A DNA stretch of 64,000 nucleotides, from the NCBI GenBank assembly GCA_964463855.1, contig CAYXEC010000003.1, positions 6,452 through 70,451 of the forward strand. Direction: 5' to 3'. The position numbers and the translations under genes are program-made. Under the pieces are notes generated by a model. That model did no database searches. It was not told the DNA's origin and saw only the letters and a program-made list of their open reading frames with translations. Every line of letters begins with the position of its first letter. The stretch's first letter is position 1. The DNA comes from an uncultured Verrucomicrobiales bacterium (GTDB lineage: Bacteria > Verrucomicrobiota > Verrucomicrobiia > Verrucomicrobiales > Akkermansiaceae). Of the stretch, positions 7,045 to 58,758 are shown one piece after another.

Positions 7045-7106
7045 GGAGATTGCGCAGGTTCTTTTGCTGGTATTGCTTCTGGTATGGCAGCATTGAAAAT
7101 GCCAAA

Positions 7107-7406: not shown

Positions 7407-7444
7407 GAGTCACTTGTAATAGGGTAGTGGGTGACTTGCCAGAT

Positions 7445-9337: not shown

Positions 9338-9435
9338 TATACTTGAGGATGGCCGCTTGTCATGCCTTTAGCCATACGAATACAATATGAATGGCTTGCA
9401 GGATCGGTATGGGCTTGTAGTCTGCGCCGCCTCAA

Positions 9436-12952: not shown

Positions 12953-12968
12953 GCTTTCTCTGCCTTTA

Positions 12969-16898: not shown

Positions 16899-16932
16899 GG
16901 GTCAAAGGTCTCGAATGATGTGTGGGCGGGCT

Positions 16933-19197: not shown

Positions 19198-19215
19198 GGT
19201 TTCTGGTAAAAAAGG

Positions 19216-21512: not shown

Positions 21513-21610
21513 GCCGGCAAGTGTAGATGGGCTTTGTGTCGATTACCAGAAGGAGTGGAGATTTTTTCCTCGGAGCAAGCCCTGATTCCGGGTTTGATGG
21601 CATTGCACTT

Positions 21611-22483
21611 ATGAAGGCTTTTGTTCTCGCAGCCCGACCCAAAACACTTCCAGCAGCCATTGTGCCCGTATGGATTGGTTGTGTGTTGGCGTATTATCTC
21701 ACCGGTGATTGGGATCCACGGTTGGCACTTTACACCTTTGTGAGTGCCCTGTGGATCCAGATAGCCACCAATTTTTTCAACGATGCCATTGATGCGCAGA
21801 AGGGTGCGGACACTGATGCGCGACTGGGGCCTGTCCGGGTGACAGCCTCCGGTCAACTCTCCACAAAAACCGTCTATGCCGTGGCGGTGTTCTGTTTGAT
21901 CCTGGCTGCCATGTTTGGCTGGGCGCTTGTTTTGGCAAGGGGATGGCCCATGCTCGCCATCGGTATTCCATCTCTCTATCTGGCTTATGGATACACGGGT
22001 GGCCCATTGCCTTTGGCCTACAAAGGGCTGGGCGAGTTGTTTGTGATCCTGTTTTTTGGTTTGGTTGCAGTTACTGGAACGGTTTTTGTGCAAACCGGGC
22101 AATGGTATGCGGAGGCACTGCTCACTGGCTTGGCTGTGGGGTCTTTGTCAGCAGTGCTGATCTCGGTTAATAATCTGCGCGATGTGAACGAGGACCGGGC
22201 CAATTCCAAAAATACCCTCGTGGTAAAGTGGGGTAGAAACGCGGTGCTTAATTTAATTTGTGTAGAGACAATCGTCGCTTACGCCTGTGCCATCTGGCTG
22301 TTCAATGTGGGTTTTACATGGCTTTTCTTTGTGCTTCCACTGGCATTAGGCCTGTGGATTGTATATCAGCTTTGTAAAAATCCTCCCGGATCCTTCTACA
22401 ATAAAATTCTCGCCATGGCAGCCATTCAGCTGGTCCTCTATGCTGTCGCATTTACGGTGAATGCCAGCTTCTCCGGAGCATGA
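21611..22483 (+). CDS. menA: 1,4-dihydroxy-2-naphthoate polyprenyltransferase
   Basis: UbiA-family membrane protein with ARPKTLPAAIVPV, NDAIDAQKGAD and NNLRDVNEDRANSKNTL. The start is set at Met 21611; the longest ORF begins at 21527. Confidence 0.88.
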   Translation: MKAFVLAARPKTLPAAIVPVWIGCVLAYYLTGDWDPRLALYTFVSALWIQIATNFFNDAIDAQKGADTDARLGPVRVTASGQLSTKTVYAVAVFCLILAAMFGWALVLARGWPMLAIGIPSLYLAYGYTGGPLPLAYKGLGELFVILFFGLVAVTGTVFVQTGQWYAEALLTGLAVGSLSAVLISVNNLRDVNEDRANSKNTLVVKWGRNAVLNLICVETIVAYACAIWLFNVGFTWLFFVLPLALGLWIVYQLCKNPPGSFYNKILAMAAIQLVLYAVAFTVNASFSGA

Positions 22484-23448
22484 AAAAACACCTCCATATT
22501 CATCCTTACACACTTGTGAGCAATACGGCTCTCAATGCCCGGTCAGCACGCTGCGAGCATCGAGGGGCCTTGATCCGGGTGGATCATCAGGGGGTGCATG
22601 GATACGGATGTATTCATCCCTGGCCCGAGCTCGGAGATGCCGGGCTTGAGCAGACTTTGTCCATGCTGGGAGAGGGCAAGTTGACTCCACTGAGCCAGCG
22701 CGCATTGTATTGTGCCAAGGTGGATGCCGAGGCGCGTCGCATGGGCGTCTCTCTCTATGACAATCTGGCAATACCGCAAAGTCATGCAACGTTGACGATG
22801 GAAGAGAGGAGTGTCAGCACGGCTGTCGATGCCGGATTTGACATGGTGAAGCTCAAGGTGGGGCGCAAGGTTTCCGAGGAGGTGGACTTCATTCGTACGC
22901 AGGCAAGCCAATTTCCGGATCTCCTGTGGAGGTTGGACTTTAATCACGCGCTTGATGATCAGGGGGTGGAAGCATTTCTGGAAAGTCTGGGTGAAGAGGT
23001 GAGAGATAAGATTGATTTCATCGAGGACGCTTATGAGCCCGGGCAAAGCCCATGGGTCGATGCGCTTGGGCCTTTTGGTGTCCCCATGGCAGTTGACCGT
23101 GAAGTGGAGGACGCCTGTGGTGGTTTTGGTGTGGCTGTGATCAAGCCAGCCATCAATGAGACTGCAGCTGTTTTGAAACGTGCGCTTGAGGATAACAGGC
23201 GGGTTGTCTTCACCAGCTACATGGATCATCCATTGGGTCAGTGTTTTGCCGCATGGGAAGCGGCCAAGGCATGCCGCGAGTTTCCCGGGGTCGTTGATAT
23301 ATGTGGGTTGATTACACATGGTTTGTTCGAACCAGATGCTTTTTCAGAGGCACTGGGGCCACCCGGGCCAGAATTCCATGCGCCCAATGGAACCGGACTT
23401 GGGTTTGATACTTTGTTGGAGAATTTGTCATGGGAACCACTGAGCTGA
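22480..23448 (+). CDS. menC: o-succinylbenzoate synthase (enolase superfamily)
   Basis: 322 aa with VKLKVGR, RLDFNHA and IDFIEDA metal-ligand motifs. Overlaps the menA stop by 4 nt. Confidence 0.8.
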   Translation: MKKHLHIHPYTLVSNTALNARSARCEHRGALIRVDHQGVHGYGCIHPWPELGDAGLEQTLSMLGEGKLTPLSQRALYCAKVDAEARRMGVSLYDNLAIPQSHATLTMEERSVSTAVDAGFDMVKLKVGRKVSEEVDFIRTQASQFPDLLWRLDFNHALDDQGVEAFLESLGEEVRDKIDFIEDAYEPGQSPWVDALGPFGVPMAVDREVEDACGGFGVAVIKPAINETAAVLKRALEDNRRVVFTSYMDHPLGQCFAAWEAAKACREFPGVVDICGLITHGLFEPDAFSEALGPPGPEFHAPNGTGLGFDTLLENLSWEPLS

Positions 23449-24590
23449 TGACCCGGGAGTTCTGGACATCGGATCGGTGTCACGTTCTGGCCAATCCGCG
23501 TGACCCGGTTGCGGCTCAACAGGCTTTGACCATCGGGGCGTGGAGCAAGCATGAGCCGAAGTTGTCAGGGCATGTTTTATTTGCCACCTCCGGGACCATG
23601 GGGGGCAGGAAATGGGCAGCCTTGTCCAGAGAGGCCATTCTCACATCAGCCAGGATGGTGAATGATCATTTGTCTGTAGACCAGAGTGACCACTGGCTAC
23701 TGGCACTACCACATTTTCACGTGGGAGGCATGGGTGTGCTGGCGCGCTCGTATGCGCTGGGTTGTTCTTTGAGCCGGCTATCCGGTCCCTGGAATGCCAT
23801 CCAGTTTCATGCTCTTGTTGAACAACAACATGTCACCCTGAGCTCGTTGGTGCCTACGCAGCTTTTTGATATTGTTGAGGCTGGTTTGAGAGCCCCTGAC
23901 TCGATACGGGCGCTCATAGTTGGTGGTGGGCGTCTCGATGATTGCCTATATGAACAAGCTCTGGCGTATGGCTGGCCTCTGGTAGAGACCTATGGCATGA
24001 CCGAATCGTGCTCGCAGATAGCCACGTCCGATGTTTGCGAGAGAAGTTTGAGATTGCTGCCAGGTTGGCAGACAAAGGTGACAGCCGGTGGACAACTCTG
24101 TATTAAGGGGGGGGCATTGTTGTCAGCTTATGTCACATGCCGTGAGAGTGTCTGCCGTATGCACGATCCCAAGGTGGATGGATGGTTTGAAACAGGAGAC
24201 CTTGTGAATATTGATGCGAACAGGCTGTTGGTAAAAGGCAGGTTGGGCCGTTGCGTCAAGGTGCTGGGCGAGTTGGTCAACCTTGATGATATTGAACATC
24301 AAATCCTTGAGCTGGGAGAGGCTTCCGCCGTGTCACTATACTCCCATGGGGTTTCGGTCATAGCGCTGGAAGATGCCCGCAAGGGCTGCAAGCTGATACT
24401 TTGTGTGCAACAAGATGGTGAGTATTCGGCGTTGCTTGAGAGCTATCATGGAATATGTCATCCCGCGGAGCGCATTGACGAGGTGCTTGTCACGGAAGAA
24501 ATTCCACGTGGCCCGCTTGGTAAAGTGCAGTATTCACGGCTTCAGGAGTGGGCTGCCGGGCAACTTGGCGATAAAGATGAGAAAAAATGA
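23430..24590 (+). CDS. menE: o-succinylbenzoate--CoA ligase (short adenylate-forming enzyme)
   Basis: 386 aa with FATSGTMGGRKW (AMP-binding motif I), ETYGMTE, and the GWFETGD and PRGPLGKV motifs. Overlaps the end of menC. Confidence 0.75.
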   Translation: MGTTELMTREFWTSDRCHVLANPRDPVAAQQALTIGAWSKHEPKLSGHVLFATSGTMGGRKWAALSREAILTSARMVNDHLSVDQSDHWLLALPHFHVGGMGVLARSYALGCSLSRLSGPWNAIQFHALVEQQHVTLSSLVPTQLFDIVEAGLRAPDSIRALIVGGGRLDDCLYEQALAYGWPLVETYGMTESCSQIATSDVCERSLRLLPGWQTKVTAGGQLCIKGGALLSAYVTCRESVCRMHDPKVDGWFETGDLVNIDANRLLVKGRLGRCVKVLGELVNLDDIEHQILELGEASAVSLYSHGVSVIALEDARKGCKLILCVQQDGEYSALLESYHGICHPAERIDEVLVTEEIPRGPLGKVQYSRLQEWAAGQLGDKDEKK

Positions 24591-24794: not shown

Positions 24795-26363
24795 ATGTAT
24801 TCACCCTCCACTTTTTTGACGTTAACCAATATCCTAATGATTCAACCCAACCACCCCGAGCAAACCCATCTATGTGAGGAAACAACCACACCAGCCAGCC
24901 ATAGAAAAATAAAAACTACAGGGGAGAAATCCCGCATCCAGGAATTCGGGCTTCAAGCTCCAACCAACATAGTCAAAAATTTTGTCCTGGATACCAATGT
25001 GCTCTTGCATGACCCGGGATGTCTGAATCAATTCGAGGATAATCACATTTGTATTCCCGTCGATGTCCTTGCTGAACTCGATAAGTTTAAATCTGAACAA
25101 AGTGAACGCGGAGCCAATGCCCGCCAGGTTCACCGCCGGCTGACCGAGCTGTTTTCGTCGGGCGACAGGGTGACATCCGGAGTTCCCACCGATGGCGGAG
25201 GGACTATACGTTTGGTGATTTATGATCCGGATTTCTGCGAGCAGAATTCCAAGGAACTTAGCCAGTTTCTGAGGGTCTTTCCCGACCGAGAGCGTGTTGA
25301 TCACCGAATCCTGGCTGCAACTGTATTATTGATGGAGCACAATGATGCTCCGGTTGTCCTGGTTACCAAGGATTTGAACATGCAGCTCAAAGCGCGTGCC
25401 GTTGGGATCGACTCGCAGGATTACCTCAACGACAAGGTCGACCCTGTCGAAATAAGTAGCTACGACATGCGCTGTGTTGATGTGGATCCTTCCGAATTAC
25501 AGCGTTTTGCCAGCTCGGGTGAACTGGCACTGGAGCATCCTCGTCGCAAAGAGATTGTGCTCAACCAGTATGTTTTACTCAAGGCCGGTGAAAAGCAGAC
25601 CATGCCCGCAAGACTCGATTCCAATGGCACTTTCGTGCGTCTCCAGATTCCGGAGGTGTTGCGCATTCCCGATGGACATCACCTCAAGCCACTCAATCTC
25701 GGGCAGAAGTGCCTGATTGACGCGCTGCTCAATCCGGATATTTCCCTGGTTACCTGTTATGGACAGGCTGGAACGGGCAAGACCCTGGTGGCCGTCGCTG
25801 CAGGGCTGCATGAGATGTTTAATCGACGTTATAATGGGCTGACTGTCAGCAGGCCTGTGATTTCCATGGGCGACCAGCTCGGGTTTCTTCCCGGGACTTT
25901 GGATGAGAAGATGAAGCCCTGGTTGCAGCCCTTTTACGATGCCCTGGACCTGCTCATGCAACCCGGTAGTAATCAGGGGCCCCGTCGCAAACAGCAAAAA
26001 AAGGAAAGCCTCAATGAGGCTGCCAGTAAGCCTTATGACCTGCTCATTGAACGTGGCATCATCGAAATTGAAGCGCTTTGTTATATACGAGGGCGCTCGA
26101 TTCCGAATCGCTTTTTTATCCTCGATGAGGCCCAACAACTCACACCGCAGGAAGCCAAGACAGTGGTGACCCGAATGTCCCGAGGTTCCAAGCTCGTGCT
26201 GGTTGGGGATCCTGCCCAGATTGACAACCCATATGTGGATAGCCGTAGTAACGGGCTTGTGTTCACGCGAAACAGACTCAAGGGTCAGCCCTTTACTGCT
26301 CACGTCACACTATCGCGTGGTGAGCGCAGCCCACTGGCCGAGGCGGGTGCGCAGCTAATGTAG
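24795..26363 (+). CDS. PIN-domain / PhoH-like ATPase (YlaK-type)
   Basis: N-terminal PIN domain (FVLDTNVLLHDP...PVDVLAELD) and C-terminal PhoH ATPase (CYGQAGTGKT, FFILDEAQQL, VGDPAQID). The start is uncertain (24795 or Met 24837). Confidence 0.88.
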   Translation: MYSPSTFLTLTNILMIQPNHPEQTHLCEETTTPASHRKIKTTGEKSRIQEFGLQAPTNIVKNFVLDTNVLLHDPGCLNQFEDNHICIPVDVLAELDKFKSEQSERGANARQVHRRLTELFSSGDRVTSGVPTDGGGTIRLVIYDPDFCEQNSKELSQFLRVFPDRERVDHRILAATVLLMEHNDAPVVLVTKDLNMQLKARAVGIDSQDYLNDKVDPVEISSYDMRCVDVDPSELQRFASSGELALEHPRRKEIVLNQYVLLKAGEKQTMPARLDSNGTFVRLQIPEVLRIPDGHHLKPLNLGQKCLIDALLNPDISLVTCYGQAGTGKTLVAVAAGLHEMFNRRYNGLTVSRPVISMGDQLGFLPGTLDEKMKPWLQPFYDALDLLMQPGSNQGPRRKQQKKESLNEAASKPYDLLIERGIIEIEALCYIRGRSIPNRFFILDEAQQLTPQEAKTVVTRMSRGSKLVLVGDPAQIDNPYVDSRSNGLVFTRNRLKGQPFTAHVTLSRGERSPLAEAGAQLM

Positions 26364-32298: not shown

Positions 32299-32374
32299 TG
32301 GTGGCTCCACCCGGGATCGAACCAGGGACACAAGGATTTTCAATCCTCTGCTCTACCAACTGAGCTATGGAGCC
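32299..32374 (-). tRNA. tRNA-Phe (anticodon GAA), CCA encoded
   Basis: The reverse complement is GGCTCCATAGCTCAGTTGGTAGAGCAGAGGATTGAAAATCCTTGTGTCCCTGGTTCGATCCCGGGTGGAGCCACCA. It folds by hand into a full cloverleaf with a 7-bp acceptor stem, D-arm GCTC/GAGC, anticodon loop TTGAAAA and a TTCGATC T-loop. Confidence 0.95.
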
Positions 32375-36310: not shown

Positions 36311-36676
36311 CTATTCAGGCCTGAGTTTTCTCTCGAGCTGCTTGGGTGAGATCCCGAAGAATTTTTTGACGTCCGTGCAAAAGTGGCTGTAGTAGAGATA
36401 GCCAAGTCTCTCGCTGATGTCGTGCAGATCCATACCCTCGCTGATCATGCGTTTGGCGAGCAGGGCCCGATGATTGCAAAACAGGTCCTTGGGCTTGAGG
36501 CCTACGGCATTTTCCACGTGCCTTTGGAGTTGAATGACGGTGAAACCAAGTATTTCAGCGACTCTCTTGACGTTGAAGTTGTTTTGCTCCGCAAGCTGAA
36601 GAAGATTAACGCCGGAGGTGTCTACGATTCTGGCTCCCTGGCGATGAAATGGTGTTGGTATTGCTGGCCTGCTCAT
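36311..36676 (-). CDS. small AraC/XylS-type helix-turn-helix regulator (HTH domain only)
   Basis: 121 aa. VKRVAEILGFTVIQLQRHV..., then ISERLGYLYYSHFCTDVKKFFGISPKQ, the second AraC HTH. Divergent from the methyltransferase-kinase-regulator cassette. Confidence 0.75.
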   Translation of the reverse strand: MSRPAIPTPFHRQGARIVDTSGVNLLQLAEQNNFNVKRVAEILGFTVIQLQRHVENAVGLKPKDLFCNHRALLAKRMISEGMDLHDISERLGYLYYSHFCTDVKKFFGISPKQLERKLRPE

Positions 36677-36898
36677 GAATGGATAGATTCGCTTAAAAGG
36701 AAAATGTTGAAAAGTTGACGCAGGTTACCCCGATTTTAAGTTAACTGCACTACTTTTTTATAGTTTTTTCAATTTTTCTTTAATTGCTGCCGTTCCGGGT
36801 GTACAAAAAATACACGTAACTGCCCATGTTTATCATTTATTGATTGGTATGTAGGTTCGTAAAGGGGGGGATGAATTACTGTTTTTTTTCAGATCAGC
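36677..36898. promoter_or_regulatory. AT-rich divergent intergenic control region
   Basis: Visibly AT-rich compared with flanking sequence (for example TTTTTTATAGTTTTTTCAATTTTTCTTTAATTG). Contains the inverted repeat GTGTA-N7-TACAC at 36799-36815 and GTTAAC at about 36750. Confidence 0.5.
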
Positions 36899-38377
36899 GT
36901 GTCAACGATTAGCTCAGCCCCCGTAAACAGCGATATCCGGTTCGAGAACAGCCAGGGTCAGGCGCTTAGTGCTCGTCTATTGTTGATGCGCCGATACTCG
37001 ATTTCGTTCGAGATTCACAATCCCTACTGCAGTGTCCAGCTCTCCGAGGTGCTGAGGAGTTTTCGTATCCAAATCAACGGAAGGCTGGCCTTTGAGGGAG
37101 ATGCTGTGGTTTCGAGCATGGTGAACACGGGGCTGGTATTGGTCTGTGAGGCGACATTGAGCAACGGCTGGAAAGAAGTCGATTTTCTGGCAAGCTCCCG
37201 GTCTGGTGAACTTGTCTCCCAGTTCGATGCATTCGTTGAGGATTGGAAACGGGCGCATCATGTGACTGCAGATTTCAAGCTTAATGTGGCTGAGATGCAG
37301 AGCATGATGATCGGCCTCAAGCGCTGGCTTGAAGAGATTGATCTTGGTATCCAGTCGATGGGCTCGGCGGACAAGAGCGGCGTGGAGCGTCAGGTGATTG
37401 CCGAGATCGAGGGGCGCGTGATGGAGGAGCTTATTCCACGTATGGCGAGTTTTGAGTCATCGGCCCGGAACATCCGGACAGTGGACCAGCCTGCCCACAA
37501 GAGCTATGTAAGAAGCCAGATGCACCCTCTCATGCTATGTTCACCCTTTGCCCACAGGGCGTATACCAAGCCTCTTGGTTATGCTGGTGATTATGAGGTT
37601 GTGAACATGATGATGCGTGATCCCTACGAGGGAAATTCACTCTTCGCCAAGTTGCTCAACAGGTCTTTCCTCGGCTTTGAGCCGGTGCAGGCGCATCGAA
37701 ACCGTATTGATTATCTGCTCGACACGATCCGTAGCGAGGCCAACAGGGTGGTCTCCGGGGGTCGCAGGCTCAAAGTGCTCAATCTGGGCTGCGGGGCAGC
37801 TCACGAGATACAACGCTTTCTTGAACAGGAGGAATTGAGTGACCACTGTGATTTCACTCTGATGGATTTCAACAAAGAGACGATTGACCATGCTGGGAGG
37901 GTACTCTCGGAGATCAAATTGAAGAATGACAGGATTACTGGTATCGAATTGGAGCAGCGATCCGTGCACCAGCTCCTCAAGCTGGCAAAGCGGGGCAATG
38001 TCGGTAATGATTTGGACTCCTATGATCTGGTCTATTGCGCAGGTCTTTTCGATTACCTGTCCCAAAAAGTATGCAAAAAGCTCGTCGAGCTTTTCACCAA
38101 GCTGCTGCGCCCGCAGGGGCTTGTCATTGTCACCAACGTGGCATCTACGAACCCTTGCATCGGTTGGATGGAATATGTCGTTGAATGGAATCTTGTTTAT
38201 CGTAACGATTGGGAGATGCTCGACTTGATTCCTTTGGACGGGACTGTTATGAAAACAGACCTCAAGAGGGAGTCCACTGGAGTAAACCTGTTTTTGGAGA
38301 TCCGAAAGGTCTCCATGACCGCATCCATGAGTTCTGAAAGCTTGATCCAATCTTCGTTACATCGTTACAATGAGTAG
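36899..38377 (+). CDS. class I SAM-dependent methyltransferase with about 250-aa N-terminal domain (PhcB-like architecture)
   Basis: 492 aa. Methyltransferase motifs are VLNLGCGAAHE, DLVYCAGLFDYL and LLRPQGLVIVTN, preceded by KPLGYAGDYEVVN. The N-terminal half has no catalytic motif. GTG start; the start is uncertain. Confidence 0.8.
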   Translation: MSTISSAPVNSDIRFENSQGQALSARLLLMRRYSISFEIHNPYCSVQLSEVLRSFRIQINGRLAFEGDAVVSSMVNTGLVLVCEATLSNGWKEVDFLASSRSGELVSQFDAFVEDWKRAHHVTADFKLNVAEMQSMMIGLKRWLEEIDLGIQSMGSADKSGVERQVIAEIEGRVMEELIPRMASFESSARNIRTVDQPAHKSYVRSQMHPLMLCSPFAHRAYTKPLGYAGDYEVVNMMMRDPYEGNSLFAKLLNRSFLGFEPVQAHRNRIDYLLDTIRSEANRVVSGGRRLKVLNLGCGAAHEIQRFLEQEELSDHCDFTLMDFNKETIDHAGRVLSEIKLKNDRITGIELEQRSVHQLLKLAKRGNVGNDLDSYDLVYCAGLFDYLSQKVCKKLVELFTKLLRPQGLVIVTNVASTNPCIGWMEYVVEWNLVYRNDWEMLDLIPLDGTVMKTDLKRESTGVNLFLEIRKVSMTASMSSESLIQSSLHRYNE

Positions 38378-39776
38378 ACCTGATCAAACCGTAAAAGAGC
38401 TTTTCAAAATATCAGAAGAGCGGGCAATAAAAGTCAACTGTCTAAGGGCATCGGTTATCGGGGCTGTCTTCATGCTTGTCGGTGTGAGTCTCGATTTGGT
38501 GGTCTATCCAGACCCTGTTTATTTTTGGCCGCTATTTTGGAATCGAGTGATTACCGCAGCCCTGTTGCTCTCTTTTGGCTGGCTGTGCAAATTCTCCAAA
38601 CGTAGTTGGATCTCCAGACTGGTGGTACACACCGTCGCGATGCTGCCCATCGTTTCCATATCCATCATGATATTCGAGACGAATGGGGTTGAATCCACAT
38701 ATTGGGCGGGACTCAACCTGGTGCTCATGGGGGCGACCGTGCTTTTGCGCTGGGGAACGCTGGATAGTGCAATCAATGCATTGTTGTGTCTTGGCTCCTA
38801 TTTCTTCGCCATTTACCAGCATCATCGCGATGATTTTTTTCTCCTTCCGGGCGGCTTGGAAGATACCTTTGTGCCCGGTTACTTCATCTTTGTCACGGGT
38901 GCCATCGCGGCAACGGCCACTTACTTTTACAATGGTAGCCGTTTCCGTGAGTTTTGTCTGGCCATGGAAGTGGCGGCAACCAACAAGGAGCTGAGGAATT
39001 CCAACCTCCAGCTTGCTGATAACATTGCCGAGCTGGAGTCCGCCAACGTCAAGCTCAAGGAGCAGGGCAGCCTGCTTGTCCAGAGTGAGAAGCTCTCATC
39101 TCTGGGGCGCATGAGTGCCGGCATTGTGCATGAGGTCAACAACCCACTCAACTACAGTAAAATAGCAATCCATACCCTGAAGTCATTCCAATCCTCCATT
39201 GATCAGGAAGAGAGGGATGACTTCCTGGAGGTGATTGCAGATGCTGAGGAGGGGGTCGTGCGCGTCATCGGCATTATTTCCGATTTACGCTCCTTTACCC
39301 GTGGTGACACAGTGAACAAAGAGCCCATCAAGGTGGCTTCATTTACTGAAAGTGCCCGCAAATTGGCGAGTTCGATCCTCGCAGATGTTGAGCTCACGAT
39401 CGATGTCGATCCAGCCCACGAGATTGAGGGCAATGAGCGTCAGCTTTGTCAGCTTCTCATTAACTTCATGCAGAATGCAGTCAGGGCCATTGATGTCAAG
39501 GCAGCCAAATTGGGGTCTTTCGAGGGGCGCATCAGCTTGACATCGGAATGCAGTGACGAGGGGGTCAGTGTGGTGATGCGGGACAATGGCTGCGGAATAT
39601 CCAAAGAGGATATCGATCACATTTTCGAGCCGTTCTTCACTAAAAACGACGTTGGTGAGGGGATGGGCCTGGGTTTGAGCATTTGCCACCGTATCCTGGA
39701 TCAACATAACGCCACTATAGCGGTTGAATCGGAGGTTGATGAGTTCACCGAATTCAGGATATTGTTCGAGAAATAA
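38370..39776 (+). CDS. membrane sensor histidine kinase (about 6 TM helices, no soluble sensor domain)
   Basis: 468 aa. H-box SAGIVHEVNNPLNY, N-box LLINFMQNAVRAI, G1 RDNGCGI and G2 GEGMGLGLSI. Its ATG overlaps the upstream gene's stop (ATGAGTAG). Confidence 0.9.
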   Translation: MSRPDQTVKELFKISEERAIKVNCLRASVIGAVFMLVGVSLDLVVYPDPVYFWPLFWNRVITAALLLSFGWLCKFSKRSWISRLVVHTVAMLPIVSISIMIFETNGVESTYWAGLNLVLMGATVLLRWGTLDSAINALLCLGSYFFAIYQHHRDDFFLLPGGLEDTFVPGYFIFVTGAIAATATYFYNGSRFREFCLAMEVAATNKELRNSNLQLADNIAELESANVKLKEQGSLLVQSEKLSSLGRMSAGIVHEVNNPLNYSKIAIHTLKSFQSSIDQEERDDFLEVIADAEEGVVRVIGIISDLRSFTRGDTVNKEPIKVASFTESARKLASSILADVELTIDVDPAHEIEGNERQLCQLLINFMQNAVRAIDVKAAKLGSFEGRISLTSECSDEGVSVVMRDNGCGISKEDIDHIFEPFFTKNDVGEGMGLGLSICHRILDQHNATIAVESEVDEFTEFRILFEK

Positions 39777-39867
39777 GCCAAAACGATCATTGCTAACGGT
39801 AAATCCAACGCTAATGTGCTTGGTTTGCTTGAAAAATTAGAATATAAAAAACGCGCGCAGATATATT

Positions 39868-41052
39868 ATGGATAATTCAAATCAAGAACACGTCGTTCTC
39901 TTCGTTGATGATGAGGAGAAAACCCGCAAATACTTTAACCGTCTGTTCGGTGACAAATTCAGAATAATGGTAGCTGTTGACGGCATGCACGCGCTTGAGG
40001 TCTTCAAGCAAAACAGTGAAAAGATTGCCGTGGTGGTTACCGACCAGCGCATGCCCAACATGTCCGGCACGCAACTGCTTGAAAAAGTGCGTGAGATCAA
40101 GCCCACTTGCATAAGGATTCTTTCAACAGCATATGCTGACATTGATACGGCTATTGACGCTGTGAACAAGGGCGGGATGTATCAGTACATCACCAAGCCA
40201 TGGGAGGTGAACGATCTTGAAGCTGCCATTGACCGCGCGCTTGAGCTCTACAGTATTCAGCTCGAAAGGGATGCGCTGCTTCGTCAGAAGCTTTCCAGTG
40301 TTGAGATGCTCGCCTCCTCAGACCGGGTTCTCTCGATCGCGACGATGGCTGTGTTCCGCAATGAGGAATTGAACCATGTCGGTGAGGCGCTCAAGCCCCT
40401 TGTCGAGCTTGCGGAAATTGGTGCTGATAATGACATTAAGGAGCCCGGTATTGATCCCAGTTTGAACTGGAGGGAACTCTATCGCAGGCATCTGGTGTTC
40501 CTACGTGCCATACGTGAAGGTCTCACGGATGACAAGCTGCGTGGAGAGGATCTTAATTACGGAGAAAGTGTGCCAGTGATGGATGTCGTGGGCCCCGTTA
40601 CCGAGGAGCTGGGTTGTTTCCAGTGGATCGGTGACGAGAAGTCTGAGTCAGGTTGGCCTGGTTCCCTGGAGGCAATGCAGGGAGAAGTAAGGCCTTTCCT
40701 CAAGGCTCTCGTCAGTGTCATGCGCGATGCCGGTGTGATTCTTATTTCCCAGACTCAGGGTGGAGTTGAATTCAGCTTGTCCTCGCGCCTGCTCGCCAAA
40801 AGTCTCGAGTCTCTGCGCACGGCAACAGAGCATGCCCCGTCCGATGATTGCATCGCCCTGTGCGCGGGCTTCTTCCGGATGGCACATGCAGGGGCCCATT
40901 TTGAAGTGGAACCTGAGTCCAACCGGGAAATGGTTCGCCTTAAGGTGACATTTGACCTGACAAGACGCGTGGATGTCACCGAGAGTGGTTGGGATTCCCT
41001 CGTGGTTGCGCTGACTGGCGATGACATTTTCTGGGCCCGCTACGGAGCCTAG
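39868..41052 (+). CDS. response regulator with non-DNA-binding, degenerate kinase-like output domain
   Basis: 394 aa. Receiver domain has LFVDDEE, VVTDQRMPNMSG and YITKPW. The remaining 260 aa or so have no HTH, and their ends resemble the DHp and last strands of the neighbouring kinase. Confidence 0.85.
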   Translation: MDNSNQEHVVLFVDDEEKTRKYFNRLFGDKFRIMVAVDGMHALEVFKQNSEKIAVVVTDQRMPNMSGTQLLEKVREIKPTCIRILSTAYADIDTAIDAVNKGGMYQYITKPWEVNDLEAAIDRALELYSIQLERDALLRQKLSSVEMLASSDRVLSIATMAVFRNEELNHVGEALKPLVELAEIGADNDIKEPGIDPSLNWRELYRRHLVFLRAIREGLTDDKLRGEDLNYGESVPVMDVVGPVTEELGCFQWIGDEKSESGWPGSLEAMQGEVRPFLKALVSVMRDAGVILISQTQGGVEFSLSSRLLAKSLESLRTATEHAPSDDCIALCAGFFRMAHAGAHFEVEPESNREMVRLKVTFDLTRRVDVTESGWDSLVVALTGDDIFWARYGA

Positions 41053-41153: not shown

Positions 41154-41387
41154 CTAAAAACCTCCGTGGCCGTATGCATGACTGCCCCTGCCTTGCTGGG
41201 GGCCTGCGCTGTCACCCTCTTTTCTCACTTCCGCGGCAGAGAGGATGTCCCGCTCCATTTGCTCCTGGAGCACCGGATCGGGGGCACATGAGGATGTTGA
41301 CAAAACAGAGCCCGCTAGCGCGGTGACTATGAGGATGATAGCTGAACGGCATTCGGAATGTGATGTAATCTTCATGACAAGCTTCAT
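41154..41387 (-). CDS. small putative lipoprotein (hypothetical)
   Basis: 77 aa with a signal-like hydrophobic stretch ending ...LSTSSC. The rest is hydrophilic, with a Gly/His-rich C-terminus. Confidence 0.4.
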   Translation of the reverse strand: MKLVMKITSHSECRSAIILIVTALAGSVLSTSSCAPDPVLQEQMERDILSAAEVRKEGDSAGPQQGRGSHAYGHGGF

Positions 41388-41483: not shown

Positions 41484-43208
41484 TTGCCTAAAGAGGGAAC
41501 CCGTATCATACCCCGTGGCATGGCAAATGCTGATATGAGTCGCATGAGAAGGTTGGGTGTGTTGATTCCCGTTTTTTCCCTTCGCCGAGATGACGACCTT
41601 GGTATCGGTGACACCCGATCCCTGCTGGATGCGGTGAAATGGGCAGCGGCGAACGGCGTTGGATTCCTGCAGTTATTACCCATCAATGAGACCGGTGCTG
41701 ATCACAGCCCCTATAATGCGATAAGTTCCGTTGCTTTGGACCCCTTGCTCCTGGATCTTGAGGCCATTCCCCAAATAGATGTGGCTGATATCAGGAAAGT
41801 GGCACAGAAGTTCGGCATCAGCGGCAAGACCGAGGATCTGGTCGATTACGACCTGGTCTTTCAAGCCAAGTGGGAGTTGCTTGCCAGCGGGTTTGAAGCT
41901 TTCTGGAATTCGGGGGAGATCAATACTGTATTTGATGCATTCCGCATTGAAGAGGCAGAGTGGCTCATTCCCTACTGCAAATTCCGCTGGCTCATGGAGA
42001 TGGCAGGGTCCGAGGGCTGGGAACTTTGGCCTGAGCAATATAACACGCCAGATGCTGCTGAGCTTTATCTGGCCTCACTTCCCGTAGAGGAAGTAGAGCG
42101 CCATTTAACCTTTTATGCATGGGTTCAATGGCACGCCTTTTCCCAGTGGCGGGCATTGCGAGACTATGCGCAAGAGCATGATGTCAAGTTGATGGGGGAT
42201 ATTCCGATCGGTATCTCATTCAATAGTGCTGATGTGTTTTTTGAGCCGGAGTGGTTCGACCTCTCATTGTCGGGAGGATCACCGCCTGAGACGGTTTTCA
42301 AGGATGATGCCTTTGCTTGCCAGTGGGGGCAGAACTGGGGCATTCCCATCTACCGCTGGGATGTGCAGGAGAAAAATGATTATTCATGGTGGCGCCGAAG
42401 AATTGAGAAACTGACGGATGTTTTTCACATTTTCAGGATCGATCACATTCTTGGATTTTACCGGATTTACAGCTTTCCATGGAGGCCAAGTCGCAATGCT
42501 GAATTTGTTGGCCTGAGTGAAAAACAGGCACAGAAAATCACCGGCGGGCCCCTTCCTTGTTTCTTTCCGCGACCAGATGATACGGACAAAAACCGGGGCG
42601 CCAATCTGGCGGATGGTGACAAATACCTCAGGGTGGTTCTGGAGGCGGCAGGTGACGGGGAAGTGGTCGGCGAGGATCTGGGATGCGTTCCCGATTATGT
42701 TCGACCCAATTTGGAGGATCTGGGTATTGCCGGTTTCAAGATTTGTCATTGGGAGGTCCGTGGGCACGGTGAAACAGTTCCCGGATCGGATTATCCCGAG
42801 TGTTCCTTTGCCACCTATGCCACCCATGATCACGAATCCATACCTGCCATGTGGAACACGCTTAAAGGCATGTTGGGCGGTATGGAGCATGAGGGAGCGA
42901 TCAGAGGCTTGGAGCTTTTGAGCGATTTCGCCGGTTTGCCCAAGGGACCCAGTGCTGATTATTATGCGGAGTATGGCCCGGTGGTCAAATGGGCCCTTTT
43001 TGACCGCTTGTTGAAATCCAATGCCGATTATGCCTCACTGATGATTACCGACATCATTGATAGCACGGCGCGCATTAACATACCCGGCACGGTCGGAGGT
43101 AAAAACTGGCGCTACCGCTTGCCGTGGAAGCTGGAGGATATGCCGGAGGCCCTGCGCGGTGATTGCTCAAGGCTCAGGGAGCTCATCCGGATCTCGGGCC
43201 GCGGCTAG
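41484..43208 (+). CDS. malQ: 4-alpha-glucanotransferase (amylomaltase, GH77)
   Basis: LGIGDTRSL..., LLPINETG, LMGDIPIGISFNSADVF, FRIDHILGF, EDLGCVP and YATHDH are GH77 motifs. The real start is probably an internal Met (about 41535). Confidence 0.9.
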   Translation: MPKEGTRIIPRGMANADMSRMRRLGVLIPVFSLRRDDDLGIGDTRSLLDAVKWAAANGVGFLQLLPINETGADHSPYNAISSVALDPLLLDLEAIPQIDVADIRKVAQKFGISGKTEDLVDYDLVFQAKWELLASGFEAFWNSGEINTVFDAFRIEEAEWLIPYCKFRWLMEMAGSEGWELWPEQYNTPDAAELYLASLPVEEVERHLTFYAWVQWHAFSQWRALRDYAQEHDVKLMGDIPIGISFNSADVFFEPEWFDLSLSGGSPPETVFKDDAFACQWGQNWGIPIYRWDVQEKNDYSWWRRRIEKLTDVFHIFRIDHILGFYRIYSFPWRPSRNAEFVGLSEKQAQKITGGPLPCFFPRPDDTDKNRGANLADGDKYLRVVLEAAGDGEVVGEDLGCVPDYVRPNLEDLGIAGFKICHWEVRGHGETVPGSDYPECSFATYATHDHESIPAMWNTLKGMLGGMEHEGAIRGLELLSDFAGLPKGPSADYYAEYGPVVKWALFDRLLKSNADYASLMITDIIDSTARINIPGTVGGKNWRYRLPWKLEDMPEALRGDCSRLRELIRISGRG

Positions 43209-43838
43209 CTCTGTAGCATGCTCTATAATGAGATGACTGAGGTGTTGTTTTGACGCTTTGGACGGGGCCTCGGTGTGATCGGCATAGACCATGAGGATCT
43301 CGTTTTCATGAGCGTCAAAGCCGATGTCGCTGCGGGAAACATCATTGGCAATTACGAGATCACATCCCTTGAGCCTGAGCTTTTTGCGGGCGTTCTCCTC
43401 GAGGTCCTCTGTTTCGGCGGCAAAGCCAATCAAGACCCCCTGATATCCAAAGTCTATCCGTGCGGAGCCCAGGATGTCAGGGGTTTTGACCAGTTCGAGT
43501 GTCAAACCAGCCTCATTTTTTTTAATCTTCTGTGTCTGGATATCAGCCGGGCGGTAATCTGCAACTGCTGCAGCAAAAATGGCAATATCAGCGCGTTTGA
43601 TCCAGTGTGCCACCGCCTCGTACATTTCCGCTGCACTTTCCACCGGGATAAAATCCACCCGATCAGGCACGTCGAGATCCGTGGGCCCGGAAACAAGGAT
43701 GACCCGGTGCCCGGCATCCGCCGCTGATTTGGCGATAGCATAGCCCATTTTCCCAGATGATCTGTTGCTCAGGAATCTGACGGGATCGATGGCCTCACGC
43801 GTTGGGCCGGCGGTGATGAGAATCGTCATCTGGAACAT
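43167..43838 (-). CDS. coaB: phosphopantothenate--cysteine ligase (stand-alone CoaB)
   Basis: 223 aa. ILITAGPTREAIDPVRFLSNRSSGKMG is the CoaB signature. The ATG directly follows the coaC stop in the same frame. Confidence 0.88.
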   Translation of the reverse strand: MFQMTILITAGPTREAIDPVRFLSNRSSGKMGYAIAKSAADAGHRVILVSGPTDLDVPDRVDFIPVESAAEMYEAVAHWIKRADIAIFAAAVADYRPADIQTQKIKKNEAGLTLELVKTPDILGSARIDFGYQGVLIGFAAETEDLEENARKKLRLKGCDLVIANDVSRSDIGFDAHENEILMVYADHTEAPSKASKQHLSHLIIEHATELAAARDPDELPEP

Positions 43839-44384
43839 TTATGATGAGCTGCGCAGCAAGCTTTCTGCGGCCTCAATAATCCCCGACTCCTCCATGAGTC
43901 TTCCAGGGCCGGAGTAGCCGCATGCGAGCATGCCATCCTCCTCCGGACCAATGAACTGGCAGCCATCTTGTTGGAGGCGGGCGACATTACGCTGGGTGGC
44001 GACATGCTGCCACATTTTGCCATTCATGGCAGGTGCTATGAGGACCGGGGCCTTGGTGGCCAGATAGACACTGGAGAGTGGATCGGGTGCCAGGCCATTG
44101 GCGAAATTGGCCAGGCTATTGGCTGATGCGGGGGCCACAAGGAGGAGATCAGCCCGGTCTGCAAGGTCGATATGTCCTGGTTTCCAGGCCTGTTTTTCAT
44201 CTTCCAGAGAGGCCAAAACCGGGTTTTGGGATATTACCTGCAAGGTCAGGGGGGTGATGAACTCGGTCGCTGCACGTGTCATCACACAATGAACATGATG
44301 CCCATTTTTAACCAGCTGTGATGCGATTGCCGCCGCCTTGTATGCGGCGATGGATCCGGTGATGCCCAGGATGATGGTTTTCAT
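43839..44384 (-). CDS. coaC: phosphopantothenoylcysteine decarboxylase (stand-alone CoaC flavoprotein)
   Basis: 181 aa with GITGSIAAYKA, PAMNGKMW and MLACGYSGPGR. Confidence 0.88.
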   Translation of the reverse strand: MKTIILGITGSIAAYKAAAIASQLVKNGHHVHCVMTRAATEFITPLTLQVISQNPVLASLEDEKQAWKPGHIDLADRADLLLVAPASANSLANFANGLAPDPLSSVYLATKAPVLIAPAMNGKMWQHVATQRNVARLQQDGCQFIGPEEDGMLACGYSGPGRLMEESGIIEAAESLLRSSS

Positions 44385-56376: not shown

Positions 56377-58758
56377 TTATTCGGCGTCCTCCTTCGTGGC
56401 ATCAGCAGCCTTTTTCAAGGCTCTCTCGATTTCGCGGATGGCCCGTTCTGCAAAATCAATGATCTTGTCACTCTCTCCCTTGGTGTAGGGTTTGAGAAGC
56501 TCGATGGCCCAGCTGGCTTTTTGCGTGCCCAGCCCCCCGATAATGAACCCTTTTTCCCTTTCTGTCTCAGCAGTAGCTGCCAGATCACGCCACAATGCTT
56601 GCAATTCATCAGGGTCGTAATCCTTGTCGAGCCTGAGAAGAGTGTCGATGGTTTTGTAAGCTTCAATGCGCATGGATTGGTTTTTATCATCTTTGATGAA
56701 TGCCATCAATGTGGGGAGGGGTTCGTGGGTTTGCCACTGGGAGAATGCAGCCATGGCAGCGTTCTGAAGAGATGGATTTCCCGAGTTGAGGGCCTCGGTG
56801 ATTGCGTCTGTTGCCAAGTCTCCACCTGTGGGGCCTAGGAGGCGCAGCATGGCAAATTTGATATTGTCGTCCTCTGCCTTGGTATAAAAATCGTAGAGGT
56901 CTGTCTCGTACGTGGTTTTTTGGGAGGGTTCGGCATCAGCAAGGATCTTGGACAAGGTGGACTCCGCGGCACGCTGCACCTTTTGCGATGGTGCGCTTTT
57001 GACCATGTTGAGAAGATCCTTCACATGGGCGCCCACTTTTGCATCACCGGAACACGCTGCGATGGCATAAACAGCAGCGGCAGCGGAATCCTCCTCTGCG
57101 CTGGTCCTGGCGAATTCGACCAGAACGGGTAAATTATCCGGGTTGGGCCTGAATTTGACGACGTCCTGCAGAAGGCCGGCACGAATGCTCGAGGGACACC
57201 TGGCCTTGATGGTGTGGTTGAGGATGATGCCATCGATATTGTAGCCACCCTCGGCCCTGGCAAATCTGAGGGTTTTGAGGATCAGGGGTTTCTGCTTGTT
57301 CTCCTGCATGCTGGTGGCCTCGGTGAGAATCCGGCCGAGCTCCTCCTCGCTGAGCGCAATACCATTGAGCTCAAGATTGCTGATGTCATCTGTCTGCTCA
57401 TCATCCAGAGCCTTGGCCTCTTTCATCACCTCATTGTAGAGGTTGTCGAGTTTGCGCTTTTCCATGTAGGCATTGCCCAGAACAACAGTGAGGATGACGA
57501 CCGCGGCGAGCATGCTGATCAGTGCCCACTTGGCGCCATTGGAGATGGTTTTGCGGGCACTCTCCATGCCCAGTGCCGAGTCCCGTGGTGCGGTGTCTCC
57601 GCCTTTGGCTGCAGCTGCCGGCAGTGTGCGTGGCTGAGCCTTGATCTTGGCGGATGTCATGCCCTCCGTGTGAGGTGGGGTGGGTTTGAGTGTGGGGGCT
57701 GGGCTGGCTGTGGGCTCTGCAGGAGCATTGATTTTGACCGTCGGGGCCGGAGCTGCCACTTTCACCGTCGGGGCGGGGGCGGCCACTTTTACTGTAGGAG
57801 TTGGGGCGGCTATCTTCACCGTTGGGGTGGCTTGCACGGCCGGGGCCTGGCTTGTGCTTGCAACGGGAGTCGGATTGGTCACCAGTTTTGCGGTGGGAAC
57901 CGGGCCGGCGTTAAGCTTGGCAGTGGCAGGCTGGTTTTCCATCGCGACAAAGCGCTCCAGGGCCTCACGCGCATTCATCGGCCGCTGGTCCATTTTGCGC
58001 TCGATGTGCCACATGATCCAATCCGCCCCCCACTGGGGAATATCGGGGCGCAGCTCACCAATCGGCGTGACGTGGTGCTGCAGATGGCTGATCATGACCT
58101 CGGCGGCACTCTCGCCATCAAAGGGGTGTTTGCAGGTGAGAGCGAAGTAGAAGAGGCAGCCCAGCGCATACATGTCCGTGCGCTGGTCAAGTGGGGTACG
58201 CTCGAATTGTTCCGGCGCCATGAAGAAAATGGAACCGAAAACCGAATCGCCATGGTCAATGGTTTGCAAGGAGGGGGAGGCGGAGAATTTGGCCAGACCG
58301 AAGTCCACGATCTTGACCTGGAACTTGCCGGAGGGTAGCCAGCTGATCATCAGATTGCTGGGTTTGAGGTCGCGGTGGATGAGGTTCAAATTTTGCGCGG
58401 CAGCCAAAGCCTCCTCGGATTGCAGAATGATCTCACGCAAGTCCTCCCAGGTGAGTGGATTATTCTCGACCATTTCATCAAGGGTCTTGCCGTTGATGAG
58501 CTCCATGACCACATAGGGGCCGTCTTCATCCGTACCCACATCATAGATCGTCACGATGTGTGGATGCTCAATGGAGGAAAGGGCGCTGGCCTCCTTGAGC
58601 AGACTTTTGGTGGCCTCCTCCTGCTGCTCGTGACCCCCATGTGCCAGAACCCGCTTGATGGCAACCTCCCTGTTGAGCTGGGTGTCAAAGGCACGGTATA
58701 CGGATCCAACACCTCCCTGACCGATTTTTCCTCTGAACTCGTAACGCTCTTTGCTCAT
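56377..58758 (-). CDS. Ser/Thr protein kinase with Pro/Ala/Thr/Val repeat linker, one TM helix and C-terminal alpha-helical (HEAT/ARM-like) domain
   Basis: 793 aa. Hanks kinase motifs are GQGGVGSVY, VAIKRV, HRDLKPSN, DFGLAKF and FMAPEQ. The transmembrane helix is WALISMLAAVVILTVVLGNAY. Confidence 0.9.
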   Translation of the reverse strand: MSKERYEFRGKIGQGGVGSVYRAFDTQLNREVAIKRVLAHGGHEQQEEATKSLLKEASALSSIEHPHIVTIYDVGTDEDGPYVVMELINGKTLDEMVENNPLTWEDLREIILQSEEALAAAQNLNLIHRDLKPSNLMISWLPSGKFQVKIVDFGLAKFSASPSLQTIDHGDSVFGSIFFMAPEQFERTPLDQRTDMYALGCLFYFALTCKHPFDGESAAEVMISHLQHHVTPIGELRPDIPQWGADWIMWHIERKMDQRPMNAREALERFVAMENQPATAKLNAGPVPTAKLVTNPTPVASTSQAPAVQATPTVKIAAPTPTVKVAAPAPTVKVAAPAPTVKINAPAEPTASPAPTLKPTPPHTEGMTSAKIKAQPRTLPAAAAKGGDTAPRDSALGMESARKTISNGAKWALISMLAAVVILTVVLGNAYMEKRKLDNLYNEVMKEAKALDDEQTDDISNLELNGIALSEEELGRILTEATSMQENKQKPLILKTLRFARAEGGYNIDGIILNHTIKARCPSSIRAGLLQDVVKFRPNPDNLPVLVEFARTSAEEDSAAAAVYAIAACSGDAKVGAHVKDLLNMVKSAPSQKVQRAAESTLSKILADAEPSQKTTYETDLYDFYTKAEDDNIKFAMLRLLGPTGGDLATDAITEALNSGNPSLQNAAMAAFSQWQTHEPLPTLMAFIKDDKNQSMRIEAYKTIDTLLRLDKDYDPDELQALWRDLAATAETEREKGFIIGGLGTQKASWAIELLKPYTKGESDKIIDFAERAIREIERALKKAADATKEDAE
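57728..57838 (-). repeat. imperfect 27-nt tandem repeat (about 4 copies) inside the kinase gene
   Basis: Encodes PTVKIAAPT/PTVKVAAPA/PTVKVAAPA/PTVKINAPA. The DNA units resemble ACTTTCACCGTCGGGGCGGGGGCGGCC. Confidence 0.8.

Follow-up and report, generated by a model that had tools for sequence, protein, structure and literature searches.

A probable Phc-type phcB-phcS-phcQ autoinducer cassette in a marine Verrucomicrobiota bacterium

Results

A four-gene locus between mazG and malQ

We analysed a 64-kb stretch of DNA (the window) from an uncultured Verrucomicrobiota bacterium (contig CAYXEC010000003.1), in which genes for a methyltransferase, a histidine kinase, a response regulator and a small AraC-type helix-turn-helix (HTH) protein form a compact locus. 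A preliminary description, made from the sequence alone, had likened the first three genes to the phcB-phcS-phcR quorum-sensing operon of Ralstonia solanacearum. Our results suggest, at a probability of roughly 0.7, that the locus is a Phc-type autoinducer module of the composition phcB-phcS-phcQ in a marine member of the Akkermansiaceae/Verrucomicrobiaceae. The four open reading frames (ORFs) lie where they had first been placed:

36311-36676, minus strand: AraC-type HTH gene, 121 amino acids (aa)
36899-38377, plus strand: methyltransferase gene, 492 aa, GTG start
38370-39776, plus strand: kinase gene, 468 aa
39868-41052, plus strand: regulator gene, 394 aa

The methyltransferase and kinase genes overlap by 8 nt (ATGAGTAG, 38370-38377), the kinase ATG at 38370 overlapping the methyltransferase TAG at 38375-38377. 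Gene order and the translational coupling of these two genes are as initially described, and the peptide motifs VLNLGCGAAHE, DLVYCAGLFDYL, LLRPQGLVIVTN and KPLGYAGDYEVVN were all found in the methyltransferase/cassette translation. The cassette is 100% identical in two assemblies from independent sequencing runs and collinear, at 89% DNA identity, in a third; because independent assemblies agree, its layout is not an assembly artefact. It is flanked by MazG and MalQ genes, as had been noted, and a survey of relatives, which had been proposed as a check, found the same gene set in at least nine Verrucomicrobial loci. The nearest relatives of all cassette proteins are from Verrucomicrobiota (Akkermansiaceae/Verrucomicrobiaceae, Oceaniferula and Luteolibacter). 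No structured RNA was detected in the cassette region.

Reference loci from Burkholderiales

A tblastn search against plasmids found a locus with the phcBSRQ layout in Paraburkholderia graminis (pPHS1_P). Scanning the cross-phylum alignment over species-representative genomes matched at least 581 species. The best 80 matches were Burkholderiales loci; they are those closest to the Paraburkholderia query, and no Ralstonia is among them. For Ralstonia, the NCBI-named PhcB of Ralstonia pseudosolanacearum and its chromosomal locus served as the reference. This locus encodes PhcB (467 aa), PhcS (442 aa; MASE8-HisKA-HATPase_c), PhcR (374 aa; REC-HisKA-HATPase_c) and PhcQ (336 aa; REC only), and matches the sizes and domains in the literature (PMC8578825).

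The order B-S-R-Q was present in 59 of the 81 Burkholderiales loci and PhcQ in 80 of them, and 20 were without a full PhcR. In these 20 loci PhcR is either missing or reduced to a bare receiver, as in P. graminis (locus L001, 10757-11161). Since 20 of 81 loci do without it, PhcR appears dispensable, and a B-S-Q layout has precedent. This agrees with genetics that show PhcR to be minor: the main regulator in Ralstonia is PhcQ, not PhcR, and acts through PhcA binding (PMC8578825; PMC13320629), whereby PhcQ binds and stabilises PhcA (PMC13320629). The phcS gene lies directly downstream of phcB on the same strand in 80 of the 81 Burkholderiales loci and in all Verrucomicrobial loci.

The methyltransferase is a PhcB homologue

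In the 492-aa protein Pfam recognised one domain, a class I methyltransferase domain (aa 291-425); aa 1-290 gave no match. Scans of Pfam and NCBIfam with the N-terminal 290 aa, whole or in pieces, returned no family, and PDB sequence searches with the methyltransferase, using the single sequence and a profile, returned the generic S-adenosylmethionine (SAM)-binding core only. An AlphaFold2 (AF2) model with a predicted local distance difference test (pLDDT) score of 85 divides the protein into three parts:

36929-37159, plus strand: N-terminal six-stranded beta-barrel, aa 11-87
37211-37756, plus strand: helical bundle, aa 105-286
37769-38308, plus strand: class I Rossmann methyltransferase domain, aa 291-470

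We asked whether the beta-barrel might be PilZ-like and found no support for this.

The protein aligned with the named R. pseudosolanacearum PhcB over 459 aa at 38% identity (E-value 7e-107), with both halves covered, and is 36-38% identical to the PhcB proteins of Cupriavidus and Paraburkholderia. The cross-phylum alignment contains 124 invariant columns, among them those of the motifs KPLGYAGDY and VYCAGLFDYLS. The resemblance to PhcB noted at the outset is thus specific and extends over the full length of the protein, N-terminal domain included. Collectively, these results indicate that the window methyltransferase is a true PhcB homologue and orthologue. In Foldseek searches its lid and Rossmann portion resembled acyl/polyketide methyltransferases and cyclopropane fatty acid (CFA) synthase, and relatives carry the JGI name 'EF 3-hydroxypalmitic acid methyl ester biosynthesis protein'.

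We also considered a CheR-like protein methyltransferase that covalently adapts the adjacent kinase and is no small-molecule synthase. Such an enzyme would fit a weak Pfam CheR match (E-value 0.037), the annotation of one Paraburkholderia homologue as 'MCP methyltransferase, CheR-type' and the nearest PDB sequence match, a protein lysine methyltransferase (E-value 4e-5). However, none of these matches extends beyond the generic SAM-binding core or reaches the curated cut-offs. By fold, the neighbours are small-molecule and acyl methyltransferases, and the characterised family member makes 3-hydroxy (3-OH) fatty-acid methyl esters (PMC8578825, PMC10653808). A CheR-like function is therefore most improbable.

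An identical methyltransferase in a public assembly (L088, position 2119) is called from an internal ATG as a protein of 463 aa. That call cuts off the N17-S18-Q19-G20 motif, which is invariant across the phyla. Because the internal start loses this motif, the GTG at 36899 (492 aa), or a start nearby, is better supported.

The kinase is a PhcS homologue

The 468-aa protein has Pfam HisKA and HATPase_c domains behind the six hydrophobic helices that had been described as its input region. These helices were confirmed between residues 29 and 183, and their positions agree with those of the six helices in Ralstonia PhcS. Alignment with PhcS, mapping of a deletion junction (see below) and a motif search define two segments:

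38370-39005, plus strand: MASE8-type sensor with six transmembrane helices and first part of the coiled-coil signalling helix, aa 1-212
39006-39776, plus strand: core of a dimerisation and histidine phosphotransfer (DHp) domain and a catalytic and ATP-binding (CA) domain, with intact H, N, G1, F and G2 boxes, aa 213-468

The window kinase and Ralstonia PhcS are collinear over 444 aa (31% identity, E-value 1e-60). The membrane region alone matched that of PhcS with an E-value of 9e-11, and the cores are 36% identical (E-value 1e-49). H254 of the window kinase (codon 39129-39131) aligns with PhcS H230 within a shared motif, SAG(I/L)(V/L)HE(V/I)NNP. H230 is the functional autophosphorylation site of PhcS, and its substitution abolishes PhcS function (PMC11960443). 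The proposed likeness to PhcS is thus borne out and includes the membrane sensor, which points to a true PhcS homologue and orthologue.

The regulator is the counterpart of PhcQ

The 394-aa regulator consists of two segments, the second of them predicted from structure:

39868-40242, plus strand: receiver domain of the PhcQ clade with D14, D15, D59, T87 and K110 intact, aa 1-125 (Pfam, tree)
40243-41052, plus strand: predicted output region of degenerate DHp-like helices and a CA-like alpha/beta domain, aa 126-394 (AF2, Foldseek)

The preliminary description took this protein for PhcR and stated that the window has no PhcQ-like partner. A phcB-phcS-phcR cassette without a PhcQ equivalent would be in keeping with the position of the regulator as third gene of the operon, with its length (394 aa vs 393 aa for Cupriavidus PhcR) and with its kinase-like C-terminal scaffold. 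However, Pfam detects HisKA and HATPase_c domains in the authentic PhcR of Cupriavidus and in that of Ralstonia, whereas it found only REC in the window regulator (E-value 8e-20), which also upholds the earlier observation that it has no DNA-binding output. No PhcR-type gene, with a receiver and intact HisKA/HATPase_c, is present in the cassette.

The receiver itself scored 94.7 bits against the PhcQ receiver, 77.4 against that of PhcR and 31.6 against PhcX. In a bootstrapped neighbour-joining tree of 126 columns, the Verrucomicrobial regulators grouped with PhcQ to the exclusion of PhcR in 98% of replicates and with PhcR in 0%. The receiver and the long helix that follows it matched the PhcQ profile with 99.9% hhalign probability, and the profile of the C-terminal region gave E-values of 1e-4 against PhcQ, 0.28 against the PhcR core and 0.02 against PhcS. 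Furthermore, R153 of the regulator (codon 40324-40326), which is invariant in an alignment of 44 Verrucomicrobial sequences, aligns with the essential, PhcQ-specific R154. This residue lies outside the receiver, and an R154C mutant behaves like a phcQ deletion (PMC6989110).

Both statements of the preliminary description on this point must therefore be revised: a PhcR counterpart is contradicted by the tree and by the missing HisKA and HATPase_c domains and is very unlikely, and the PhcQ-like partner thought to be absent is the 394-aa regulator itself. These results indicate that the regulator is the PhcQ counterpart, and it follows that the cassette is of the type phcB-phcS-phcQ, not phcB-phcS-phcR. 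A PhcX/LqsR-like identity was rejected, as such matches reached 31.6-41.6 bits only and were confined to the receiver region.

The output region resembles a dead histidine kinase

The AF2 model of the regulator (pLDDT 83) shows a receiver, a helix of 40 residues, further helices and an alpha/beta domain. Its best full-length Foldseek match was LvrB (8vc9, REC-DHp-CA), aligned over ~400 columns with an E-value of 1.7e-10, above all isolated receivers. A motif search of the regulator found none of the kinase motifs H, N, G1, F and G2. In the alignment a Glu/Asn occupies the position of the phospho-His, the N-box Asn is missing and the segment of the G1 box and ATP lid is deleted.

An exhaustive profile search with the regulator returned 1,194 representative clusters at E-values of at most 1e-30. 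The end-to-end matches form a gradient from intact REC-HisKA-HATPase_c proteins through proteins with weak or partial kinase domains to proteins with REC only. The same bridging proteins, one of which JGI names 'probable response regulator PhcQ', match Burkholderiales PhcQ over ~250 of 335 residues, and an iterated C-terminal profile reached the CA domain of PhcS (E-value 5e-7). A kinase-like but catalytically dead C-terminus, as proposed at the outset, is therefore supported, with the scaffold apparently kept and the kinase motifs gone. By this modelling, the C-terminus of the regulator is probably a dead DHp/CA kinase scaffold, or pseudo-kinase.

In the same alignment PhcQ is more eroded than the window regulator, and the two share a final helix-turn-strand. 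Residues ~130-336 of Ralstonia PhcQ (locus L092, 10941-11951) align as an eroded DHp/CA kinase remnant, with R154 in the former DHp helix. This suggests that the PhcQ C-terminus in Ralstonia, too, is such a remnant. We did not find a kinase origin of this region described in the Phc literature, where the C-terminus is called uncharacterised.

The window kinase derives from a longer hybrid kinase

Five other Verrucomicrobial lineages, namely Oceaniferula spumae, Luteolibacter luteus and three metagenomic lineages (metagenome-assembled genomes of Akkermansiaceae among them), carry directly after the methyltransferase gene a kinase of 868-942 aa with the architecture MASE8-HisKA-HATPase_c-REC-HisKA-HATPase_c. 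In these loci a receiver-only regulator gene follows, and then a gene for a FadL/Toluene_X outer-membrane channel, often with genes for short-chain dehydrogenases/reductases (SDRs) or EthD-like proteins:

L082: long kinase, 8452-11058; FadL-type channel and companions, 12395-13567
L083: long kinase, 8412-11135; FadL-type channel and companions, 12764-15419
L084: long kinase, 8467-11106; FadL-type channel and companions, 12414-15233
L093: long kinase, 5176-8004; FadL-type channel and companions, 9240-10871
L094: long kinase, 5275-7908; FadL-type channel and companions, 9214-11447

The companions are two SDR genes, an EthD-like gene or a gene for a 331-aa protein. Two of the three metagenomic long-form lineages share the chromosomal neighbourhood of the window, and the order LptFG-rhomboid-MazG ... 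MalQ-CoaBC-Gmk is often common to long-form loci.

The window kinase corresponds to residues 1-~212 plus ~632-879 of the long form, with an in-frame gap of ~420 aa (~1.3 kb) between two coiled-coil linkers, each of which leads into one of the DHp domains. Its junction reads NKELRNSN/LQLADN, and three lineages, with kinases as far apart as 71% identity, share the identical junction NK[EK]LR[NH][SI]N/[LR]QLA[DE]N. The same junction in three diverged lineages indicates one ancestral in-frame deletion in the window clade. The core of the window kinase is 65% identical to residues 606-879 of the L084 long kinase. Of the two cores of the long kinases, the second, retained one matched PhcS with an E-value of 1e-51, and the first, deleted one with a generic 3e-10. 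The deletion thus restores a PhcS-like kinase architecture. The preliminary description of the kinase as such stands, but it missed that the protein is a deletion derivative of a longer hybrid kinase and that a FadL-type gene is normally part of the cassette.

The long form amounts to an intramolecular sensor-kinase-receiver-kinase relay, with an extra core and receiver between the PhcS-type sensor and core. The internal, deleted receiver falls outside the PhcQ/PhcR clade with 100% bootstrap support in the neighbour-joining receiver tree. A PhcS-PhcR fusion was considered as the origin of the long kinase and rejected: the second core is PhcS-like, neither core is specifically PhcR-like and the internal receiver lies outside the clade.

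The FadL, SDR, EthD-like and 331-aa genes are all absent from the window clade. No FadL gene was found anywhere in the window, and no remnants of the FadL or 331-aa genes were found between the regulator and MalQ. This comparison indicates that the window clade has lost the FadL gene. Between the regulator and MalQ genes lies an ORF of 77 aa (41154-41387, minus strand) whose N-terminus is signal-peptide- and lipobox-like (…LSTSSC…). It is called at the same position in relatives, including downstream of FadL in Oceaniferula, and probably stands outside the cassette.

A kinase-receiver module and one or more downstream genes have gone from the window clade, compared with the five other lineages, as would be expected of a decaying remnant in which the 420-aa deletion and the loss of FadL mark a loss of function. 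However, the deletion falls between two coiled-coil linkers, keeps the reading frame and yields the PhcS architecture anew; its junction is kept identical in lineages diverged to 71% kinase identity, and the catalytic motifs of methyltransferase, kinase and receiver are all intact. The ratio of nonsynonymous to synonymous substitution rates (dN/dS) relative to an 89%-identical relative (L086) was 0.14 for the methyltransferase, 0.098 for the short kinase, 0.034 for the regulator and 0.050 for the AraC-HTH gene. Finite dS values were obtained for these four comparisons, for the regulator against L084 and for the AraC-HTH gene against L090; farther pairs were saturated. All four cassette genes are under purifying selection (dN/dS 0.03-0.14), and the reduced cassette is maintained, not decaying. 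We consider decay extremely improbable.

A conserved AraC-type HTH gene faces the cassette

The 121-aa protein is a stand-alone AraC-type double HTH without a sensor or dimerisation domain (Pfam HTH_18, aa 40-116, E-value 6.5e-15; no other domain), and its gene is divergent from the cassette. Its only PDB sequence match was the DNA-binding domain of the AraC-type response regulator XynC (6swi). The gene was present in every Verrucomicrobial cassette sampled and, within 7-8 kb, in none of 82 Burkholderiales/Ralstonia loci. No other cassette gene is as well conserved: the protein is 83-97% identical across lineages where the methyltransferase is 67-91% identical, reaches 94% where the methyltransferase is at 76% and the kinase at 71%, and has a dN/dS of 0.02-0.05. 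The AraC-HTH protein is the candidate DNA-binding output and the probable substitute for PhcA.

When six intergenic regions were aligned, a conserved feature emerged in the divergent spacer:

36747-36781, no strand assigned: conserved block of ~35 bp, GCAC-n4-TTTTTT-n3-GTT-n8-TTTT-CTnTAAT

The block comprises invariant columns 71-105 of the window spacer (six lineages, including Oceaniferula) and is a candidate shared promoter or operator. A generic sigma-70 scan returned nothing at the block, a promoter/terminator scan gave no enrichment over shuffled sequences, and a search of the spacer for repeats found weak AT-rich inverted repeats only.

Discussion

A proposed signalling scheme

We infer the product chemistry, the phosphotransfer partners, the AraC partnership and the density dependence of the cassette as follows. 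By analogy with Ralstonia, the PhcB-type methyltransferase would use SAM to esterify a fatty-acid-type carboxylate, converting a 3-hydroxy fatty acid to a lipophilic or volatile methyl ester. The ester would partition into the membrane, where the six-helix MASE8-type input of the PhcS-type kinase would sense it. The kinase would autophosphorylate on H254 and pass the phosphoryl group to D59 of the PhcQ-type regulator, whose predicted dead DHp/CA scaffold would act by protein-protein contact, as PhcQ does on PhcA. Co-occurrence suggests the AraC-HTH protein as the likeliest partner; it may bind the conserved block in the divergent promoter and thereby close an autoinduction loop. In the window lineage the sensor has been streamlined by deletion of the HisKA-HATPase-REC module, and the FadL-type channel gene is gone too. 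A lipophilic ligand is hinted at by the FadL and SDR neighbours in relatives, whose products could supply or transport the hydrophobic signal or its 3-hydroxy precursor, and by the acyl-methyltransferase-like fold.

Those FadL-type channels and SDRs would equally fit the catabolism or uptake of exogenous hydrophobic compounds. The cassette could then be a Phc homologue with no role in quorum sensing: a private homeostatic circuit in which an endogenous lipid or metabolite is the substrate of the methyltransferase, for example in fatty-acid detoxification or remodelling, and the kinase monitors membrane or lipid status or an environmental hydrophobic compound. The position of the cassette among housekeeping genes and the structural neighbours of the methyltransferase, which are biosynthetic or modifying enzymes, are consistent with such a role. 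In contrast, the sole characterised members, those of Ralstonia and Cupriavidus taiwanensis (PMC10653808), are autoinducer systems. In addition, synthase-sensor adjacency with translational coupling is kept across two phyla, and synthase, sensor and regulator stayed under purifying selection after the loss of FadL in the window lineage. We regard a homeostatic circuit as unlikely and favour a phcB-phcS-phcQ autoinducer module.

Several observations weigh against this autoinducer module as set out here. At 36-38% identity to PhcB, the substrate of the methyltransferase could differ, and R22 of PhcB and L161 of PhcS, which are functional residues in Ralstonia (PMC6989110), are not conserved in the window proteins. 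Our own hmmscan match of the kinase to MASE8 was weak (E-value 0.059, 14 bits); the precomputed Pfam record of a 100%-identical protein (L088) lists MASE8 with no 'weak' mark. The structural reading of the regulator comes from one AF2 model and a Foldseek alignment to LvrB with a low global TM-score of 0.30. Direct hhalign comparison of its distal C-terminal domain with PhcQ gave a borderline 56% probability, and an iterative search with residues 165-394 never recruited Burkholderiales PhcQ directly; homology of this part is borderline and transitive, by way of the bridging sequences. The partnership of the AraC-HTH protein with the regulator is drawn from co-occurrence and conservation. The window lineage is without the FadL gene that in relatives backs a lipophilic ligand. 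Finally, no LysR gene, and hence none of the PhcA type, is among the 50 ORFs of the 64-kb window, as had been noted before. The phcA gene is unlinked to the phc locus in Ralstonia as well.

Novelty and implications

The bare similarity is already on record in databases, where automated KEGG-based and JGI annotation gives these proteins the names PhcB and PhcQ. What appears to be new is the B-S-Q orthology, the long-kinase, FadL and AraC-HTH parts of the cassette, the collapse to a short kinase and the interpretation of the PhcQ-type output as a pseudo-kinase. According to a 2023 survey of Proteobacteria, the phc gene cluster is more narrowly distributed, within Betaproteobacteria (PMC10653808). 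We found no paper linking PhcB to Verrucomicrobia and, in line with the initial assessment, no experimental characterisation of such a module outside Ralstonia/Cupriavidus in the literature.

We know of no quorum-sensing chemistry for Verrucomicrobiota. Phc signalling is the master virulence switch of Ralstonia, and the Verrucomicrobial B-S-Q cassette would take Phc-type systems beyond Betaproteobacteria, their supposed confines. Volatile or lipophilic methyl-ester signalling may then operate in ocean and soil communities, including the abundant marine Akkermansiaceae. The conserved core of the pathway would be B-S-Q rather than B-S-R, which fits the recent genetics of PhcQ as the key regulator, and a dead-kinase C-terminus of PhcQ offers a structural hypothesis for PhcA binding.

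A bolder and doubtful proposal, which we put forward tentatively, is that Phc-type fatty-acid-methyl-ester quorum sensing has a separate branch in marine and soil Verrucomicrobiota, in which a PhcQ-type pseudo-kinase controls an AraC-HTH activator that replaces PhcA. If so, the regulator would control this activator through direct binding or stabilisation, and PhcQ, in Ralstonia too, would be an eroded REC-kinase hybrid acting as an adaptor. One deletion would have collapsed a sensor-kinase-receiver-kinase relay into a direct PhcS-like kinase, and the second, PhcS-like core would be the one feeding PhcQ. The long and short kinases would form a natural experiment on how an intercalated kinase-receiver module shapes signal processing. 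Since the long form is present in two cultured species, O. spumae and L. luteus, these predictions are directly testable.

Other genes in the window

The remainder of the window contains the following features of note:

298-1113, plus strand: enoyl-CoA hydratase/MenB-like gene, separate from the menaquinone cluster
12969-20532, minus strand: Cus-type heavy-metal resistance-nodulation-division (RND) efflux operon with an unusually long 1309-aa AcrB-family pump, an outer-membrane factor and a 754-aa CusB-like adaptor with HMBD and DUF3347 domains
21527-24590, plus strand: menaquinone cluster with a UbiA/MenA-like prenyltransferase, o-succinylbenzoate synthase and an AMP-binding MenE-like enzyme
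24795-26363, plus strand: PIN-PhoH fusion protein
32302-32374, minus strand: single tRNA gene, the sole Rfam match in the window
43167-44384, minus strand: CoaB (DFP) and CoaC (flavoprotein) as two adjacent genes, not a fused CoaBC; same in relatives
56377-58758, minus strand: 793-aa Ser/Thr protein kinase with HEAT repeats

Comparison with known systems

The closest characterised system is PhcBSRQ/PhcA of Ralstonia. PhcB, PhcS and PhcQ have homologues in the window in the same order, B-S-...-Q; the H230-type phospho-His and the equivalent of R154 are kept, and the regulator likewise is without a DNA-binding domain. The window differs in having no PhcR, no PhcA-type LysR or PhcX nearby and, in their stead, a gene for an AraC-HTH-only protein. 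Its regulator is longer than PhcQ (394 vs 336 aa) and appears to have the fuller dead-kinase scaffold, identities are 31-38%, and the host belongs to another phylum and a marine habitat. The PhcR-deficient Burkholderiales loci are effectively B-S-Q like the window, but what is left of their PhcR is a truncated receiver (134 aa in P. graminis), their PhcQ is of the Burkholderiales type and they have no AraC-HTH gene. The long-form Verrucomicrobial cassettes are orthologous to the window in all four genes and differ in their kinase of 868-942 aa and their FadL/Toluene_X channel, as against the single deletion and the lost genes of the window.

The regulator model has its best structural match in Leptospira LvrB, a receiver joined to a DHp helix and a CA-like alpha/beta domain, and may share this architecture, although at a TM-score of 0.30. 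The catalytic His and the ATP-binding boxes are present in LvrB-type proteins and absent from the window regulator. The AraC-HTH protein matches a domain of XynC (6swi) that stands alone here, whereas XynC has it fused to a receiver of its own. MarA and SoxS are likewise AraC double-HTH-only proteins of ~120 aa, and a protein so built, the one in the window included, must be controlled via its abundance or a protein partner; the AraC-HTH protein is of MarA size and has no specific sequence relationship to MarA or SoxS. In CqsA/CqsS and LqsA/LqsS an autoinducer synthase is encoded beside a kinase whose all-membrane input binds a lipophilic signal. This is a functional analogy only: CqsA and LqsA are pyridoxal phosphate (PLP)-dependent acyltransferases, and neither synthase nor kinase input is related to those of the cassette.

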